A DNA stretch of 64,000 nt from Candidatus Latescibacterota bacterium (GCA_965242865.1 CBDETK010000013.1:1792001-1856000), one strand, 5' to 3'. Numbered from the stretch's first letter, positions 57,208 through 62,976 are shown. Notes: generated by a model from the sequence alone, not told the origin. A program made the numbers and translations.

Positions 57208-57807
57208 TTGCCGCCTCGTCTCGTCGGCTTGGCCGGACCGTCCGGCGCCGGTAAAACCACGCTGGCCCGTGCGCTCCAGACCCACCTGCCCGGCCCGACC
57301 ACCGTGCTTTCCCTCGATGCGTACTACCGCGACTTGGCCGCCCTGTCCGCAGCCGCAAGAACCCGCGTCAATTTCGACGCCCCCGACGCCATAGATCACC
57401 CACGCCTCGCCGCTGACCTGCGCCAACTCGCGGCTGGCCACCGCGTCGAAATCCCGGTGTACGACTTTGCCACCCACACGCGCCAAGCGCACCAGCAGAG
57501 CCTCGCCCCGGCCGACTTCCTGATCGTCGAGGGCCTCTTCGCGCTCTATTGGCCCGCCATCAACACCCTCTACCACCTGCGCCTCTTCGTCGCAGCCGCC
57601 GACGCGCTCTGCTTGGAACGCCGCCTCGCCCGCGACCGCATGGAGCGCGGCCGTTCCGCCGCCTCGGTCCGCGCCCAGTACCAAGAACAGGTCCGCCCCA
57701 TGTACCGCCGCCACATCCAACCCACCGCCCGCCACGCCGACCTAATCCTCGACGGCAGCACCCCCATCGAAAAACAGGTCGCCGCCACCCTAGACGCCCT
57801 GTGGTAG
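57208..57807 (+). CDS. udk: Uridine kinase
   Basis: GLAGPSGAGKTT, LDAYYRD, NFDAPDAID, PVYDF.TH.R, IVEG, RR..RD..ERGR. Confidence 0.92.
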   Translation: MPPRLVGLAGPSGAGKTTLARALQTHLPGPTTVLSLDAYYRDLAALSAAARTRVNFDAPDAIDHPRLAADLRQLAAGHRVEIPVYDFATHTRQAHQQSLAPADFLIVEGLFALYWPAINTLYHLRLFVAAADALCLERRLARDRMERGRSAASVRAQYQEQVRPMYRRHIQPTARHADLILDGSTPIEKQVAATLDALW

Positions 57808-57831
57808 GGACAACCCTCGTGGTTGTCCCTA
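57805..57831. repeat. GTAG-type REP-like stem-loop (target of the adjacent element; partial copy at 60367-60387)
   Basis: tagggacaacc-ctcgt-ggttgtcccta perfect 11-bp stem; acaaccctcgtggttg repeats exactly at 60367-60382. Confidence 0.8.
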
Positions 57832-57949
57832 GAAGCGGTCTGCTCCGCAAACCACCTTGGGGCATGTTGAACAAGCTCTGAGGATTGCCGTAGAAGTAAG
57901 CAGGTTGCGGCTTCTGTGTTTGGGCTTTTTATTAAAGAACCTACAATCA

Positions 57950-58050
57950 GGGCCGGCCCCCCGTGCCTGCCCGTTAGAATCCCGTTGGGGCAGGCCCCCG
58001 TGCCTGCCCGTTAGAATCCCGTTGGGGCAGGCCCCCGTGCCTGCCCGTTA
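57950..58050. repeat. Tandem 37-bp REP-like units (about 2.7 copies)
   Basis: Unit ggggcaggcccccgtgcctgcccgttagaatcccgtt with an internal gggcaggc/gcctgccc hairpin; linkers identical. Confidence 0.85.
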
Positions 58051-58379
58051 CAGCGGCCCATTTGGGGTTAGCAAATGAACGAGACGATGGTTAAGCATTT
58101 CACATCAGGCAGGGGCCTTGCTGTGGGGCAAAACCCTGTTGGATGCTTGGAATCATCGTCGGATTTAATGTGTCGTAAGTCGTTGAAAAACAACAACTTA
58201 CCCTCCCCCCCCGAAAATTCTCCGCTAGCACCAAGCACTAAACTCTCTACTTCTCTGCATAGGCCGACGGCTCGTGTGCGGCTGTTGGGCGTCGCGTCGG
58301 TCTGCCCGCGTGGCCCCAAGCGCACGCTACCGTGCGGCCTTTGTGCTGATCCCCGTTTACTGCACCACCCCCGCAATCA

Positions 58380-58523
58380 GTCTGCCAAGGACCGAGAGCG
58401 GAATCTCTTCGACCCAGACACCGCGAGAACACTAGCAAAGGCGCACCCACAGCAAGGGGCGCGTCCTGAGCACTCCAAGTTAGCCCTAGGGCTAGCTCTG
58501 CCTCTTTCGGGGCGTCATGCCCC
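58380..58523 (+). ncRNA. Candidate structured 5' leader RNA
   Basis: Successive hairpins: gtctg/cagac enclosing gaga/tctc, gcgcaccc/ggggcgc, tagccctagggcta, ggggc/gcccc. Ends ~30 nt before the AAGGAG RBS. Family not recognised. Confidence 0.35.
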
Positions 58524-58564
58524 TCTTCCAATCTCCACACCATATCCACACAAAGGAGCAAAAA

Positions 58565-60235
58565 ATGCTTTCGTTGAAATCTCTCAAAACCCTGTTTGCG
58601 TTCGTCCTTTTGGGCATCGTCAGCACTTGGATGGGCTGCTCGGACTCCGCGCCGGTGGCCTCTCGGCCGGCGGGCAAAGCCACCTGTTCCTTGTGCGAGT
58701 TCTTGGGCGACGACGCCTACACCGCTACCGACGGACTGGCCGCCCGGGAAAGCCCCGACACCACCCAGACCGAAGCCGAAGCCGAGACCGACAGCACCCA
58801 GACCGCTGACGCCGATAGCACCCAAGCGACCACCGTGGAGTTCGCCGACGCCAATCTAGAGCGGGCGGTGCGGGAAGCGTTGGATCGCCCGCAAGGGCCG
58901 CTGACCCCGGCAGACTTGGCCGCCCTGACCGAACTTGACGCGAGCTATAAAAACATTGAGAGCGTGGCCGGCCTCGAACACGCCACGGCCCTGACAACGT
59001 TGTATCTGCGAGGCAACGCGATTACCGATGTGCAGCCGTTGGCCAGTCTGACCAATCTTCAAACGTTGTCGCTGTGGGGCAACAAGGTGGCGGATGCGAG
59101 TCCGCTGGCCAGCCTGATCAGCTTGCGCAAGCTGGATATGTGGGGCAACGAAATTACGGATGTACAGCCGTTCGCGGGCCTAACCAATCTGCAATTTCTC
59201 AATCTAGGGGACAACGACATTGCGGACGTGAGTCCCTTGGCCAGCCTGACCAACCTGAAATGGCTGGGCGTGATGGAAAACGGCCTTAGCCAGCACGCGG
59301 CCAACCAACAACTCGCCGCCGCGATAACAAGCGGCCTCCGCGTCGAAGCGGTAATAGAAAAATACCCCCGCGTCGAAACCGTCCAAGTCTATCCAGAAGA
59401 ACCGGAACCAGAGGAACCGGAACCAGTGCCCGTCATATACTGGACAGACTATACCACGTATAAGATTCAGCGGGCCGATTCGGATGGCGTAAACTCAAAC
59501 GTCCAAGACGTCGTCACAGGATTGGGTAATCCAGACGGCATCGCGCTGGACTTGGCGGGCAGAAAGATATACTGGACAGCCTATGGCGCGGATAAGATTC
59601 AGCGGGCCGATATGGATGGCGTAAACGAAAACGTCCAAGACGTCGTCACAGGATTGACGACCCCATTGGGCCTTGCGCTGGACTTGGTGGGCAGAAAGAT
59701 ATACTGGATAGACGATGGCACGGATAAGATTCAGCGGGCCGATATGGATGGCGTAAACGAAAACATCCAAGACGTCGTTACAACAGGATTGTCGTCCCCA
59801 TATGGCATCGCGCTGGACTTGACGAACAGAAAGATATACTGGACAGACTATGGCGCGGGCGTGAATAAGATTCAGCGGGCCGATATGGATGGCGTAAACG
59901 AAAACATCCAAGACGTCGTTACAGGATTGTTGTACCCATATGGCATCGCGCTGGACTTGGCGAACAGAAAGATGTACTGGACAGACTGGGGCACGGGCGC
60001 GGATAAGATTCAGCGGGCCGATATGGATGGCGTAAACGAAAACGTCCAAGACGTCGTCACAGGATTGGGTAATCCATTGGGCCTTGCGCTGGACTTGGCG
60101 AACAGAAAGATGTACTGGCCAGACAATACCACGGATAAGATTCAGCGGGCCGATATGGATGGCTTAAACGAAAACGTCCAAGACGTCGTCACAGGATTGA
60201 CGACCCCATCGGGCATCGCGCTGAGTATTCGGTAG
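58565..60235 (+). CDS. Lipoprotein with internalin-type leucine-rich repeats and a six-bladed YWTD (LDL-receptor class B) beta-propeller
   Basis: AAGGAG RBS, lipobox WMGC, FADANLE.AVR cap, 22-aa L..L.L.GN.I.DV.PLA.LTN repeats, EEPEP linker, six YWTD repeats. Confidence 0.9.
   Translation: MLSLKSLKTLFAFVLLGIVSTWMGCSDSAPVASRPAGKATCSLCEFLGDDAYTATDGLAARESPDTTQTEAEAETDSTQTADADSTQATTVEFADANLERAVREALDRPQGPLTPADLAALTELDASYKNIESVAGLEHATALTTLYLRGNAITDVQPLASLTNLQTLSLWGNKVADASPLASLISLRKLDMWGNEITDVQPFAGLTNLQFLNLGDNDIADVSPLASLTNLKWLGVMENGLSQHAANQQLAAAITSGLRVEAVIEKYPRVETVQVYPEEPEPEEPEPVPVIYWTDYTTYKIQRADSDGVNSNVQDVVTGLGNPDGIALDLAGRKIYWTAYGADKIQRADMDGVNENVQDVVTGLTTPLGLALDLVGRKIYWIDDGTDKIQRADMDGVNENIQDVVTTGLSSPYGIALDLTNRKIYWTDYGAGVNKIQRADMDGVNENIQDVVTGLLYPYGIALDLANRKMYWTDWGTGADKIQRADMDGVNENVQDVVTGLGNPLGLALDLANRKMYWPDNTTDKIQRADMDGLNENVQDVVTGLTTPSGIALSIR
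59435..60232 (+). repeat. Six near-identical ~132-138-bp coding repeats (YWTD blades)
   Basis: aagattcagcgggccgat...ggatggc.taaac..aaac.tccaagacgtcgt recurs six times. Confidence 0.95.
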
Positions 60236-60419
60236 TCGTAGAGGTTCACCTGCCCGGCTTGAATGGGTCGAGGCGCTGGGCTAAGGCCGAGCGGGAAGGA
60301 CGGCGACCGCCTCTACGGCTTGTTCAAAACGACCCAAGATAGGATTTGCGGAGCAGACCGCTTCTTACAACCCTCGTGGTTGCCCTTATCTGCGTCCCGC
60401 CCCACGCTCCAATGGCATC

Positions 60420-62357
60420 CTAAAACGGCCCGGCGTGGTGCGAAGGCTCGTTGACGTAGCGTTGGGTCTCTAGGTCGAGGGTGATTTCGCAATGAGGCGG
60501 CAAGGCGATGCTCAGGTGCTTGCCGTTGACGGCCACTTGACGCTCTTCGGTCGCCAAGGGCACCGCCGCGTACGTACCGGCATAGCCGCCCAGCCAGCCC
60601 GGGTACTCGCTGGTGCGGCTGTGGTACGCGGCCCGGCCAAAGCGGTGCTCGCCAAAGGCGCCGCCCTGAATGACCAGTTCCCTGCTCTCGTTGGGGTTCA
60701 AATTGACCAAGCGCACGACCGTGCGGTTCGCTTCGAGCGTTTCCACCAAGGCCCCTACGTCGGCGGGCAGGCCGGGGCGGCCGCGCTGGGCGTCAAAGTA
60801 GCGCAGGCGGGTGTGCAGCAGGCCGCCGTTGTAGATGGGTTGTGGGCCGCCCAGCGTGAGTTGGATGAGCGCTTCGGACGAGACGGGATTGCCCCATTGC
60901 CAGTGGTGGACGTGATGGCGAGTGCCCACGTCTTGATCGGCGCGCAGTTGGGCCAAGCGGCGGCCGGCCACTTGGTACGTGGCCTGCAACATTTGCTCTG
61001 GATAGGTCGGGTTGGCGCCGGCCAAAAAGCGCACCCAAGGGGCCTCGTGGCCCGAGTCCTCTTTGTTGTGGAAGGGGAACACGGCCGCCCAGTCGAACGC
61101 TTCCTTTTGCCGAATGGCCTCCACGCGCTCCCAATCGGCCTCGTCCATGGACAAATTCCACAGGGTCACCGGGTACACCGGACTCATGGGCTGCCAGTCG
61201 AACCAGCCGGCGTCGCCGTAGCGGTAGGGCACCAGCAAGGTTTCGCGCTGCTCGCCCATGGCGGCAAATTGGCTCGCCCAGCGCTCGGCCACGCTCATGT
61301 ACTGATCGCGAATATCCTCCATGCGCCCTTGTTCCAAAATGCGGTCCATCTGCTGGCGCGGCAGGTCGAGATAGGCGCGGTCGCGGGTCAACAAGTAGGC
61401 GTTGGCCGCGGCGTCGAGGGTGGCCTTCTGCAACGTCAAAAAGCCGTGCGGAAAGGTCCAGCCGTAGCGGCCCCCGTACCAATTTCCAGCGCAGTATTCG
61501 CCCACTTGGCCGGACAAGCCGACGTTGTCGGGCAACAGGCCGCCGTTGGCGCGGGCGCGCTCCACCCAAGCGTCCGTGTATTCCACGACCCAAGCGCGGT
61601 ATTTTTCGTCGCCCGTGATCAGGAAGGCATTGGTCGCCAGCGAGGTGACGGCCAAGTTGGTCGGGGTGTCGCCCTGACGCCAGCGGTCGAACAGGGTTTG
61701 CCCCATCAGCCGAGCTTTGGCCGGGTCGGCCAAGTCCTGCACACAGGTGATGCCGGGCAAGTCAAAAAAGGGCAGGTCGTACACTTCCATGCTGCCGCCC
61801 AAGGGGTTGTAGCTTTGTCGGTCGCGCTCGGCGAGTGGGGCGAAGTAGGGGCCGTGGCTGCCGTTGAGGCCCGAGCGCAGGATTTTGTGCTCGGGGTCGT
61901 AGTTTTGCGCGTCCGGGTCTTCGTTGAGGTAAAAGCCGGCAAAGCGACAGGCCCGTTCGACGCGCCGCGGGGCATTGGGGTGGGCTAGGCACAAGTGATA
62001 AAAGCAGACGTCGCTTTCGGCTTGGTGCATCTGGTCTTCGCGGATGCCGTATTCCTTGCTGACCGTGCCCAAGCGGGTCAGTTGGCGGGTGATGGCCTCC
62101 CACTGGCGGTCGGCCAAGTGCAACAGGTGCTCGCCGCCGCCCATCAGATAAACGAGCGGCCAATTAAAAAAAGGCTCGTAGAAATCGTCGGGGCTGCCGC
62201 CGCCCCACTCGTCCTGCCAGATGAATTCGCCATCCTCGCGGGTGAAGTGGTCGAGGAAGGGCTGCACCGATTGGTCGAGGGCGTCGAACAGGCGACGCTG
62301 CCACACGGCCCAGTGGGCCGGTTCGTTGAGCGGGATATTGGCGGTCAGGCGTTGCAT
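60420..62357 (-). CDS. Conserved hypothetical protein (possible alpha/alpha-barrel carbohydrate-active enzyme)
   Basis: 645 aa with host-like codon usage; DDFYE.FFNWPL.YL.GG, PDNVG..G, G..GW.FPHG, RYFD...RPGLP. Fold is a guess. Confidence 0.7.
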   Translation of the reverse strand: MQRLTANIPLNEPAHWAVWQRRLFDALDQSVQPFLDHFTREDGEFIWQDEWGGGSPDDFYEPFFNWPLVYLMGGGEHLLHLADRQWEAITRQLTRLGTVSKEYGIREDQMHQAESDVCFYHLCLAHPNAPRRVERACRFAGFYLNEDPDAQNYDPEHKILRSGLNGSHGPYFAPLAERDRQSYNPLGGSMEVYDLPFFDLPGITCVQDLADPAKARLMGQTLFDRWRQGDTPTNLAVTSLATNAFLITGDEKYRAWVVEYTDAWVERARANGGLLPDNVGLSGQVGEYCAGNWYGGRYGWTFPHGFLTLQKATLDAAANAYLLTRDRAYLDLPRQQMDRILEQGRMEDIRDQYMSVAERWASQFAAMGEQRETLLVPYRYGDAGWFDWQPMSPVYPVTLWNLSMDEADWERVEAIRQKEAFDWAAVFPFHNKEDSGHEAPWVRFLAGANPTYPEQMLQATYQVAGRRLAQLRADQDVGTRHHVHHWQWGNPVSSEALIQLTLGGPQPIYNGGLLHTRLRYFDAQRGRPGLPADVGALVETLEANRTVVRLVNLNPNESRELVIQGGAFGEHRFGRAAYHSRTSEYPGWLGGYAGTYAAVPLATEERQVAVNGKHLSIALPPHCEITLDLETQRYVNEPSHHAGPF

Positions 62358-62526
62358 GGGGACTCCTGCGAGGTTTCGGGGGCGTTGGCCGAGGCTTACG
62401 CGGATGAGTTTAGTGGGAGAAAGCGCCGGTGTAAAGCCGCTTGACAGCGCGGGACGAAGCGGGCTTATTGCGCTAGGCCAGCGTCCCACCCCGTGGAAAT
62501 TGGGATATTGAGAAGAGGGTAGCACC

Positions 62527-62976
62527 ATGCGCTGCATCGCGGAAATCGCTCTGTGGGGCGCGGTTCTGTTGGAGGCGGCCGGTTGCACACCCGCCCTGCC
62601 TCCAGAGCCGTTGCGCATCCAAATCACCGGGGAAGAGTACACTTGGCAATTTCGCTACCCCGGCCCCGACGGCGCATTGCAGACCGACGACGATGTAATC
62701 AAGCCGGGCAAGGAATTGCACCTGCCGCTCGACCTAGCGATTGAACTCGAACTGACCAGTCGAGATTACATCTACACCTTCGCCCTGCCCCATCTCAACT
62801 TACATCAGGTGGCCGTGCCCGATTTGACCTTTGCGCTGGCCTTTACCCCGCGAGAAGCGGGCGCATTCTCCTTTGTCGGCGACCAAATGTGCGGCTTTGA
62901 ACACGAGTCGCTCAACGGCCGCGTGGTGATCGAGCCGCCAGCAGCTTTTGTCGATTGGCTGGCCGGGCCGCGATAG
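62527..62976 (+). CDS. Cytochrome c oxidase subunit II C-terminal (cupredoxin) domain lipoprotein with degenerate CuA site
   Basis: ITG..Y.W.FRYPGPDG, LHLP, LTSRD, DQMCGFEH; lipobox AAGC. Confidence 0.75.
   Translation: MRCIAEIALWGAVLLEAAGCTPALPPEPLRIQITGEEYTWQFRYPGPDGALQTDDDVIKPGKELHLPLDLAIELELTSRDYIYTFALPHLNLHQVAVPDLTFALAFTPREAGAFSFVGDQMCGFEHESLNGRVVIEPPAAFVDWLAGPR

Follow-up and report, generated by a model that had tools for sequence, protein, structure and literature searches.

We analysed a stretch of 64,000 nucleotides (the window) that is part of a 6.0-Mb metagenome-assembled genome (MAG) of Candidatus Latescibacterota (genome label G000; genomic coordinates are given on C13). Between a udk-like kinase gene and a gene for a conserved 740-aa protein it holds a cassette that carries a leader and a gene for a lipoprotein with leucine-rich repeats (LRR) and YWTD repeats (Table 1). 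Sequence related to the window turns up in sponge metagenomes. An earlier interpretation of this DNA, made without database searches (the sequence-only reading), had described the LRR-YWTD gene and its ~700-bp leader as bracketed by inverted repeats with a perfect outer 21 bp. This was borne out and the size could be refined: judged from the whole family, the cassette runs from a tip G at 57832 to a tip C at 60364 and measures 2533 bp. The outer inverted repeat (57831-57851 with 60345-60365) comprises 21 nt of 100% complementarity and the inner one (57856-57876 with 60318-60338) 21 nt of 86% complementarity. The 21-mer of the end matches the window twice at up to three mismatches, against an expectation of 0.00 from 100 shuffles.

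Table 1. The udk locus and its cassette, in window positions. R type, sequence of the kind found at the right end of the cassette; MITE, miniature inverted-repeat transposable element.
Feature	Position	Strand	Description
udk-like kinase gene, left neighbour	57208-57807	+	Pfam PRK, 5.2e-38
Left stem-loop	57805-57831	+	11-bp perfect stem, 57805-57815 with 57821-57831
Left flanking trinucleotide CTA	57829-57831	+	family register
Left end of cassette	57832-57878	+	tip GAAGCGGTCTGCTCCGCAAA, then ~27 nt of R-type sequence, inverted; structure unique among copies
Non-coding leader, 683 nt	57882-58564	+	starts GGATTGCCGTAGAAG; conserved among copies
Cargo gene, 556-aa predicted lipoprotein	58565-60235	+	LRR_4, 2.6e-39; Ldl_recept_b, 2.3e-35
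3' flank and right end	60236-60364	+	~50 nt of conserved 3' untranslated region, then R-type half-MITE (~60286-60364); tip ...AGACCGCTTC at 60364
Right flank	60365-60388	+	TTA (60365-60367), then right 21-bp copy (60368-60388), itself ending TTA
Conserved 740-aa protein gene, right neighbour	60420-62642	-	0 Pfam families

The predicted cargo protein begins with a signal peptide that ends in a cysteine (...WMGC), followed by an LRR module and six YWTD (LDL-receptor class B) repeats, and its gene contains a 132-bp repeat array. Upstream, the left end stops 3 nt short of the leader (TGA, 57879-57881). The leader holds an AAGGAG ribosome-binding site at 58553-58558 and a 37-bp tandem repeat of 2.7 copies (57950-58050, 96% matches). 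No leader open reading frame (ORF) was conserved in frame and position among the 14 copies compared, Rfam gave 0 matches at E up to 1 over 57700-60500, the scan for sigma-70-like promoters found 0, and terminator-like sites were no more numerous than in shuffled sequence. When the leader was used as query there were 41 matches in G013 and 15 in G020, most of those listed falling on leader positions 102-183. Elsewhere in the class, the 37-bp repeat matches short sequences dispersed in other genomes, and it may represent a separate small repeat family.

As the sequence-only reading had stated, no transposase lies inside the cassette: the LRR_4 and Ldl_recept_b protein is the sole ORF there with a Pfam family, and five other internal ORFs fall below the cut-off. 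A composite transposon was rejected as the ends are 47 and ~80 nt long and lack a transposase, rather than being two complete insertion sequence (IS) copies. Contigs of the public runs X7 and X8, possibly the source sample, span both cassette junctions (57300-57910 and 60309-60900) with 0 differences. The arrangement is therefore not an assembly artefact of this record. None of 15 listed joints (contigs of runs X7, X8, X1 and X11) bypasses the cassette, which has no bearing either way because rare variants drop out of contigs.

The tips of the cassette recur throughout the genome. The 21-nt tip has 17 real copies, and the tip motif GA[AG]GC[GT][GT]TCT has 231 matches, 97 of them preceded by TNA (TTA 42, TAA 34, TCA 11, TGA 10). 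Identical 3-bp flanks were found in 16 of 20 pairs of facing tips less than 6 kb apart. These pairs comprise MITEs of 131-209 bp, one 758-bp deleted IS, a 931-bp IS and the LRR-YWTD cassettes. Within the tip 5/210 alignment cells are off consensus, compared with 21/370 in the 37 columns that follow. The 931-bp IS has two copies, 100% identical, the first of them flanked by TAA on both sides. Its two overlapping frames match DUF4096 (1.2e-26) and DDE_Tnp_1 (2.3e-14) and score 116 bits (orfA) and 84 bits (orfB) on the NCBIfam model IS5_3 (NF033580, cut-off 110). ISRm4-3-type IS5-like elements are the nearest named relatives (39.5% identity), and the IS family was found in 11 of 25 congeners. The tips of this IS, GAAGCGGTCTGAAAAC and GAAGCTGTCTGAAAAC, are identical to the cassette tip GAAGCGGTCTGCTCCGCAAAC over 11 nt, after which there is a 5-nt difference. 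A second, unsplit IS5 transposase is also encoded. Given the tip sequence, the transposases that match the IS5 model and the TNA flanks, the cassette ends belong with the tips (GAAGCGGTCTG...) of an IS5-family superfamily that duplicates a 3-bp TNA target. The sequence-only reading had favoured the IS1182 family instead. This affiliation had to be given up: with the IS1182 model (NF033551), whose cut-off is 270 bits, the scores were 16.1 and 27.5, whereas the unsplit, full-length transposase passes the IS5 model with 212.7 bits (cut-off 110).

The unsplit transposase belongs to a second IS5-type IS (C13 5598702-5599594, 5378781-5379673 and 4813316-4814208) with tips GAAGCCTTTTTAAAAC, a single 295-aa transposase ORF and DNA ~65% identical to the 931-bp IS. 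Two of its copies are flanked by TAA on both sides, the third by TTA and TGA.

Solitary MITEs of ~130-160 bp in G000 have one half that is homologous to the right end of the cassette. Cargo-free R-type ends occur in G027 (3 matches) and G005 (1 weak match) and include a complete MITE flanked by TAA/TAA. The other half of the MITE (...ggtggtcgtcccttgcgtc...) adjoins the leader in three cassettes. Within the family, the cassette ends show homology to both halves of a MITE without cargo; in the window copy both ends are of R type.

The cassette belongs to a large family within this genome. A query with the whole element found more than 30 loci, and a close copy of the N-terminal part of the gene is present at 26 dispersed loci that are at least 19 kb apart, none in tandem. 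Among 14 copies the leaders are 0.81-0.96 identical in pairwise comparison (median 0.895). Full-length leader matches, 28 in number, came from G000 alone, with 20 relatives yielding fragments of up to 180 nt; likewise, close full-length proteins were found only in G000 (35 matches), with partial matches of 45-62% identity in 25 congeners. The absence of the family from the 25 congeners fits a burst. In the family alignment, column conservation is 0.89-0.98 over the N-terminus and the LRR and 0.3-0.5 over the YWTD part. The 19 full-length family proteins range from 493 to 607 aa and have 1 to 6 recognisable YWTD motifs, that is, a constant lipoprotein signal and LRR joined to a hypervariable YWTD propeller.

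Both tips are retained in 5 of the 26 copies, the right tip only in 4 and the left tip only in 3; 14 have neither, and part of the right-end sequence persists in 3 of these 14. Four of the five two-tip copies are flanked by TAA/TAA (C13 891246-893989, 1108734-1111263, 1921095-1923536 and 5563345-5566309), the window copy being the exception. In 8 copies the right tip lies 129-141 nt past the stop codon, and homology ends exactly there and gives way to TNA and unrelated DNA. This fixed position, together with the end of homology, indicates that the right end is part of the copied unit and that the boundary is a transposon tip, unlike that of a simple segmental duplication. The left boundary is a patchwork in which different IS or MITE ends abut the start of the leader (GGATTGCCGTAGAAG), often across a TNA, and the five complete copies display four kinds of left end. 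The window copy has as its left end a truncated, inverted second copy of the right-end type, 47 nt long, which accounts for the long (47-bp) inverted repeat. The 47-bp ends noted by the sequence-only reading are real as an inverted repeat; their length is peculiar to the window copy, as other copies have different left ends. In the copy whose leader is closest to that of the window (C13 3988633, 94.3%), the tip fragment beyond the same TGA is truncated in another way, which suggests that a MITE formerly present at this TGA was cut down differently in the two copies.

The spread of host-interaction genes had been proposed as the role of such elements. The LRR-YWTD cassette is indeed multi-copy, but every cargo-bearing pair of tips holds the same leader and LRR-YWTD gene, so that varied cargo forms no part of the picture. 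Among pairs up to 20 kb apart, identified with a relaxed tip, no other cargo was found, only LRR-YWTD cassettes and 5 chance-level pairs (5 further same-flank pairs above 1 kb, against an estimated chance number of ~7).

The udk locus of relatives lacks the cassette gene. The udk and 740-aa genes are convergent neighbours in 22 of 23 relatives' loci examined (within the range L006-L060), the remaining locus ending before udk, and an LRR gene separates them in 0 of the 22. Ten relatives have a gap of 33-208 bp and seven one of ~913-919 bp, a single relative has 1279 bp, and the gaps of the other four measure 3.6-4.7 kb; none of the contents of the longer gaps is an LRR gene. In the alignable short-gap relatives (10 shown) a single stem-loop-like sequence follows the udk stop and continues into sequence like that which follows the right copy in the window. 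On this point the sequence-only reading, which had looked to relatives for an empty site with a single stem-loop, is supported. A base-exact empty site is available for another copy, C13 2789464-2791925, in the congener G027 (...gatgctt-cactccagc-TAA-ggaaaaag...). The right tip of the G000 copy abuts the same single TAA as in G027, and its left side lacks 9 bp of flank, the expected left tip and the duplicated TAA. This deletion shows how left ends get lost. No clean empty site was found for cassette c3, where left-flank orthologs occur in 13 congeners and the right flank is not adjacent there, and no clean empty junction for the copy at C13 3655135, whose flanks are ~600 bp apart in relatives. 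For cassette c1, left-flank orthologs occur in only 5 genomes and are at most 73% identical. At locus L102 of G031 a related IS-type tip, AAGCTGTCTCAAAAC, stands at the same stop codon where G000 has the cassette C13 5563345-5566309, which may reflect either recurrent use of the site or an old common insertion.

At the udk locus itself the flanks of the cassette are unusual. The left end abuts a stem-loop after udk, and 16 bp of it recur outside the right end, as the sequence-only reading had noticed. The TAG stop of the udk-like gene is part of this left stem-loop, which folds with -18.5 kcal/mol (z = -3.9); only a weak fold, of -4.7 kcal/mol, was computed for the right copy. The 16-nt direct repeat, ACAACCCTCGTGGTTG at 57810 and 60367, has only these 2 matches in the window at up to two mismatches, against 0.00 expected. 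The full duplicated flank spans ~21 bp (57811-57831 and 60368-60388) with 2 differing positions, and the locus can be written as udk-GGGA-[X-CTA]-element-TTA-[X-TTA]-TCTGCG, where X is CAACCCTCGTGGTTG(T)CCC. Both base differences between the 21-bp copies are exactly those that perfect the left hairpin, and relatives have the form of the right copy at the first differing position (GGTTGC). The left CTA was probably TTA originally and altered later, which would restore a canonical TTA/TTA duplication. For the extra X-TTA, either a tandem 21-bp duplication preceded the insertion, or integration duplicated 21 bp and carried along 3 donor bases. A tandem 21-bp duplication is seen in none of the 10 short-gap relatives. 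A udk-site allele with a single ...GGTTGCCCTTATCTGCG... is the form expected under a non-canonical 21-bp duplication and would support it.

We interpret 57832-60364 as a mobile insertion cassette (MIC), namely a non-autonomous IS5-family MITE in which the central hairpin is replaced by the leader and the LRR-YWTD lipoprotein gene, and we put the probability of this reading at roughly 0.6. In the simplest reading, this exchange of the MITE's central hairpin for leader and gene would have happened in the G000 lineage. A resident IS5-family transposase of the 931-bp IS type would bind the GAAGCGGTCTG... tips and move the cassette in trans into TNA sites, and the leader would provide expression signals at every new site. 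Later deletions may have removed one end, mostly the left, and so immobilised most copies. The left end of the window copy would derive from a MITE that landed at the leader-adjacent TGA and was then internally deleted.

Several observations weigh against this interpretation. No recognisable tip is left in 14 of the 26 copies, and 7 have one tip. The matching flanks of 4 of the 5 two-tip copies are suggestive rather than proof, because two independent insertions would match in TNA by chance in about one pair in three (~0.32 per pair, estimated from genome flank frequencies). Two cassettes have a common derived left end over ~150 bp with unrelated DNA outside, and their leaders are only 84% identical; copies therefore recombine, and ends can spread without transposition. 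The leaders diverge by 4-19% among copies, which gives no hint of very recent movement, and a near-identical pair is absent. The copy at the udk site has no canonical duplication (CTA versus TTA) and carries in addition a 21-bp flank repeat that is absent from 20 other pairs, and the relatives with an empty udk site belong to other species (udk 75-90% identical). Finally, the DDE transposase with these ends that had been anticipated was found in part: the resident 931-bp IS has related tips, but the exact 21-nt tip of the cassette is on no autonomous IS, and the match stops after 11 nt. Across 185,579 species genomes the exact 21-nt tip gave one match, in an unrelated Caproicibacter MAG, which is at chance level (estimate ~0.3).

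Some of these points suit the notion that the LRR-YWTD family grew by ordinary duplication and recombination, with the IS and MITE ends as separate insertions beside the genes and the pair in the window as unrelated end fragments. Besides the 14 tipless copies, the mosaic leaders and the frequency of chance TNA matches, this notion can draw on the spot just upstream of the leader, which bears varied IS and MITE ends, often across TNA, in the manner of a hot spot, and on the 26-bp left end of C13 1108734-1111263, which has its own TAA on both sides. We nevertheless consider it unlikely, given that 8 copies have the right end at a constant spacing from the stop codon and lose homology exactly at its tip, that the copies are dispersed rather than tandem and at least 19 kb apart, that the base-exact empty site found in G027 is bounded by the tip plus a single TAA, and that a family missing from 25 congeners fits a burst. 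A narrower alternative concerns only the arrival at udk, which may have come about by homologous or microhomology-mediated recombination, for example between a resident MITE and a cassette elsewhere. Such an event would explain the non-canonical flanks: CTA/TTA and the 21-bp repeat are unlike the products of the family elsewhere, exchange among copies is evident, MITE ends are plentiful substrates, and the intergenic site is variable in relatives, with gaps from 33 bp to 4.7 kb. Against this stand the two intact tips at which homology ends exactly, a right flank that opens with the canonical TTA, and the lack of any MITE remnant outside the tips, which make recombination at udk quite improbable.

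The hairpin had led to a different proposal, a non-autonomous element of IS1182 type that targets and duplicates the 3' foot of REP (repetitive extragenic palindromic)-like stem-loops. In the window copy the left tip does abut a strong hairpin, of which 16 bp (~21 bp) recur outside the right tip. The tip family as a whole, however, behaves otherwise. The mean best stem was 3.62 beside 97 termini and 3.60 beside 2000 control TNA sites, and stems of at least 7 bp were found at 1.0% and 0.9%, respectively, which leaves no excess of hairpins. Repeats of more than 7 bp in the flanks are confined to the window copy and absent from the other 20 of the 21 pairs. The stem-loop word is not a dispersed repeat either: it has 2 exact copies in the genome, both at the udk locus, and 5 matches at up to two mismatches, the 3 extra inexact ones being at chance level (estimated expectation ~3). 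Together with the IS1182 scores far below the cut-off, these results render an IS1182-type element very improbable indeed. As the tests for hairpins, flank repeats and dispersal were all negative, palindrome targeting and "REP sites" are traits of the udk locus alone and not of the element. Of the sequence-only reading the core idea holds, but not the family assignment, the targeting rule or the generality.

From the MIC interpretation a bolder scenario can be drawn, which we offer tentatively and regard as possible at best. In it, a MITE caught a lipoprotein gene with a portable 0.7-kb leader and burst to at least 26 copies in one sponge-symbiont lineage, as a transposition-driven engine for the expansion and variation of eukaryotic-like proteins whose LRR stays constant while the YWTD propeller is hypervariable. 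In the udk copy, integration at a hairpin would then have been non-canonical, with 21 bp of target duplicated instead of 3.

The cassette combines features of several known systems. The IS427 and IS1031 subgroups of IS5 are elements of 0.8-1 kb with two frames and duplications of 2-4 bp or TNA. With IS5 elements (DUF4096 and DDE_Tnp_1, NCBIfam IS5_3) the cassette shares the GAAGCGGTCTG... tip, the TNA flanks and a resident 931-bp two-frame autonomous copy; unlike them, it has no transposase, carries 2.4 kb of cargo and has a tip that diverges after nucleotide 11. The IS1182 family resembles it as a DDE-type element with inverted ends; according to the sequence-only reading, some members insert at the foot of hairpins and make long duplications there. 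This family differs in that its transposase model is unmatched here and an association with hairpins is absent from the cassette-tip family. Among the IS that target REP sequences are IS1397 and some members of the IS110 family. Like elements that target REP or BIME (bacterial interspersed mosaic element) sequences, the cassette adjoins a palindrome between convergent genes, but this palindrome is unique in the genome and the IS family has no palindrome preference.

By definition, MICs consist of passenger genes bracketed by IS-related inverted repeats, contain no transposase and are activated by the cognate one (PMC4337579). Examples are the MICs of Bacillus cereus and those of Xanthomonas, which carry transcription activator-like effector (TALE) genes between TnXax1 ends (PMC4337579). 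With IS-related inverted repeats of IS type at both ends, a passenger gene and no transposase, the cassette resembles these elements and fits the structural definition of a MIC; its mobilisation in trans is a prediction. The parallel with the Xanthomonas TALE cassettes extends to the copies, some with duplications (putative ones in G000), some with solo ends only and some with none (PMC4337579), and to the cargo, a repeat-rich protein of host-interaction type. Unlike the known MICs, the cassette has IS5-family ends (3-bp TNA) and not those of Tn3 (5 bp) or IS231, is built from a MITE with a conserved 0.7-kb leader travelling along, and reaches an unusually high copy number (26) with a single cargo family. 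The cassette type is already known, and this member of it is new and unusually prolific.

Sponge symbionts have large sets of eukaryotic-like repeat proteins, whose growth is mostly ascribed to horizontal transfer or plain duplication. A study of sponge Latescibacterota lists LRR and other eukaryotic-like proteins (PMC12993501), and its main text contains no word starting with 'transpos' or 'mobile' and no mention of 'insertion sequence'. In the literature searched we found no report of such cassettes in sponge symbionts. G000 provides a specific route that can be tested, in which a gene and its leader lie inside IS5-type ends, with ~26 copies in one lineage and none in 25 congeners. The multiplication of the cassette suggests one way in which sponge symbionts expand their host-interaction genes. 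Given the parallel with the Xanthomonas TALE effectors (PMC4337579), host-associated bacteria may quite generally multiply and diversify surface or effector proteins by this means.

Further observations concern the right neighbour and other repeats of the genome. The 740-aa protein has relatives in Latescibacterota MAGs at 86-96% identity. Despite its lack of a Pfam family it is conserved at 50-96% identity across MAGs of Latescibacterota, Poribacteria, Gemmatimonadota and Chloroflexota, and two paralogs per genome are common among the MAGs matched. An abundant family of ~135-bp MITEs (for example C13 5553743-5553876, 5054427-5054561 and 4768453-4768586) has tips GAAGCGTTCTTAAAAC, a central ggattcccgc...gcgggaat hairpin and TNA duplications. 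Another repeat is present in at least 6 copies (C13 1652364, 1775336, 1978065, 4504659, 5083010 and 5121486) that have more than 80 nt in common around an internal AGAAGCGGTAT. This repeat has no relation to the ends of the cassette and probably represents a further multi-copy element.

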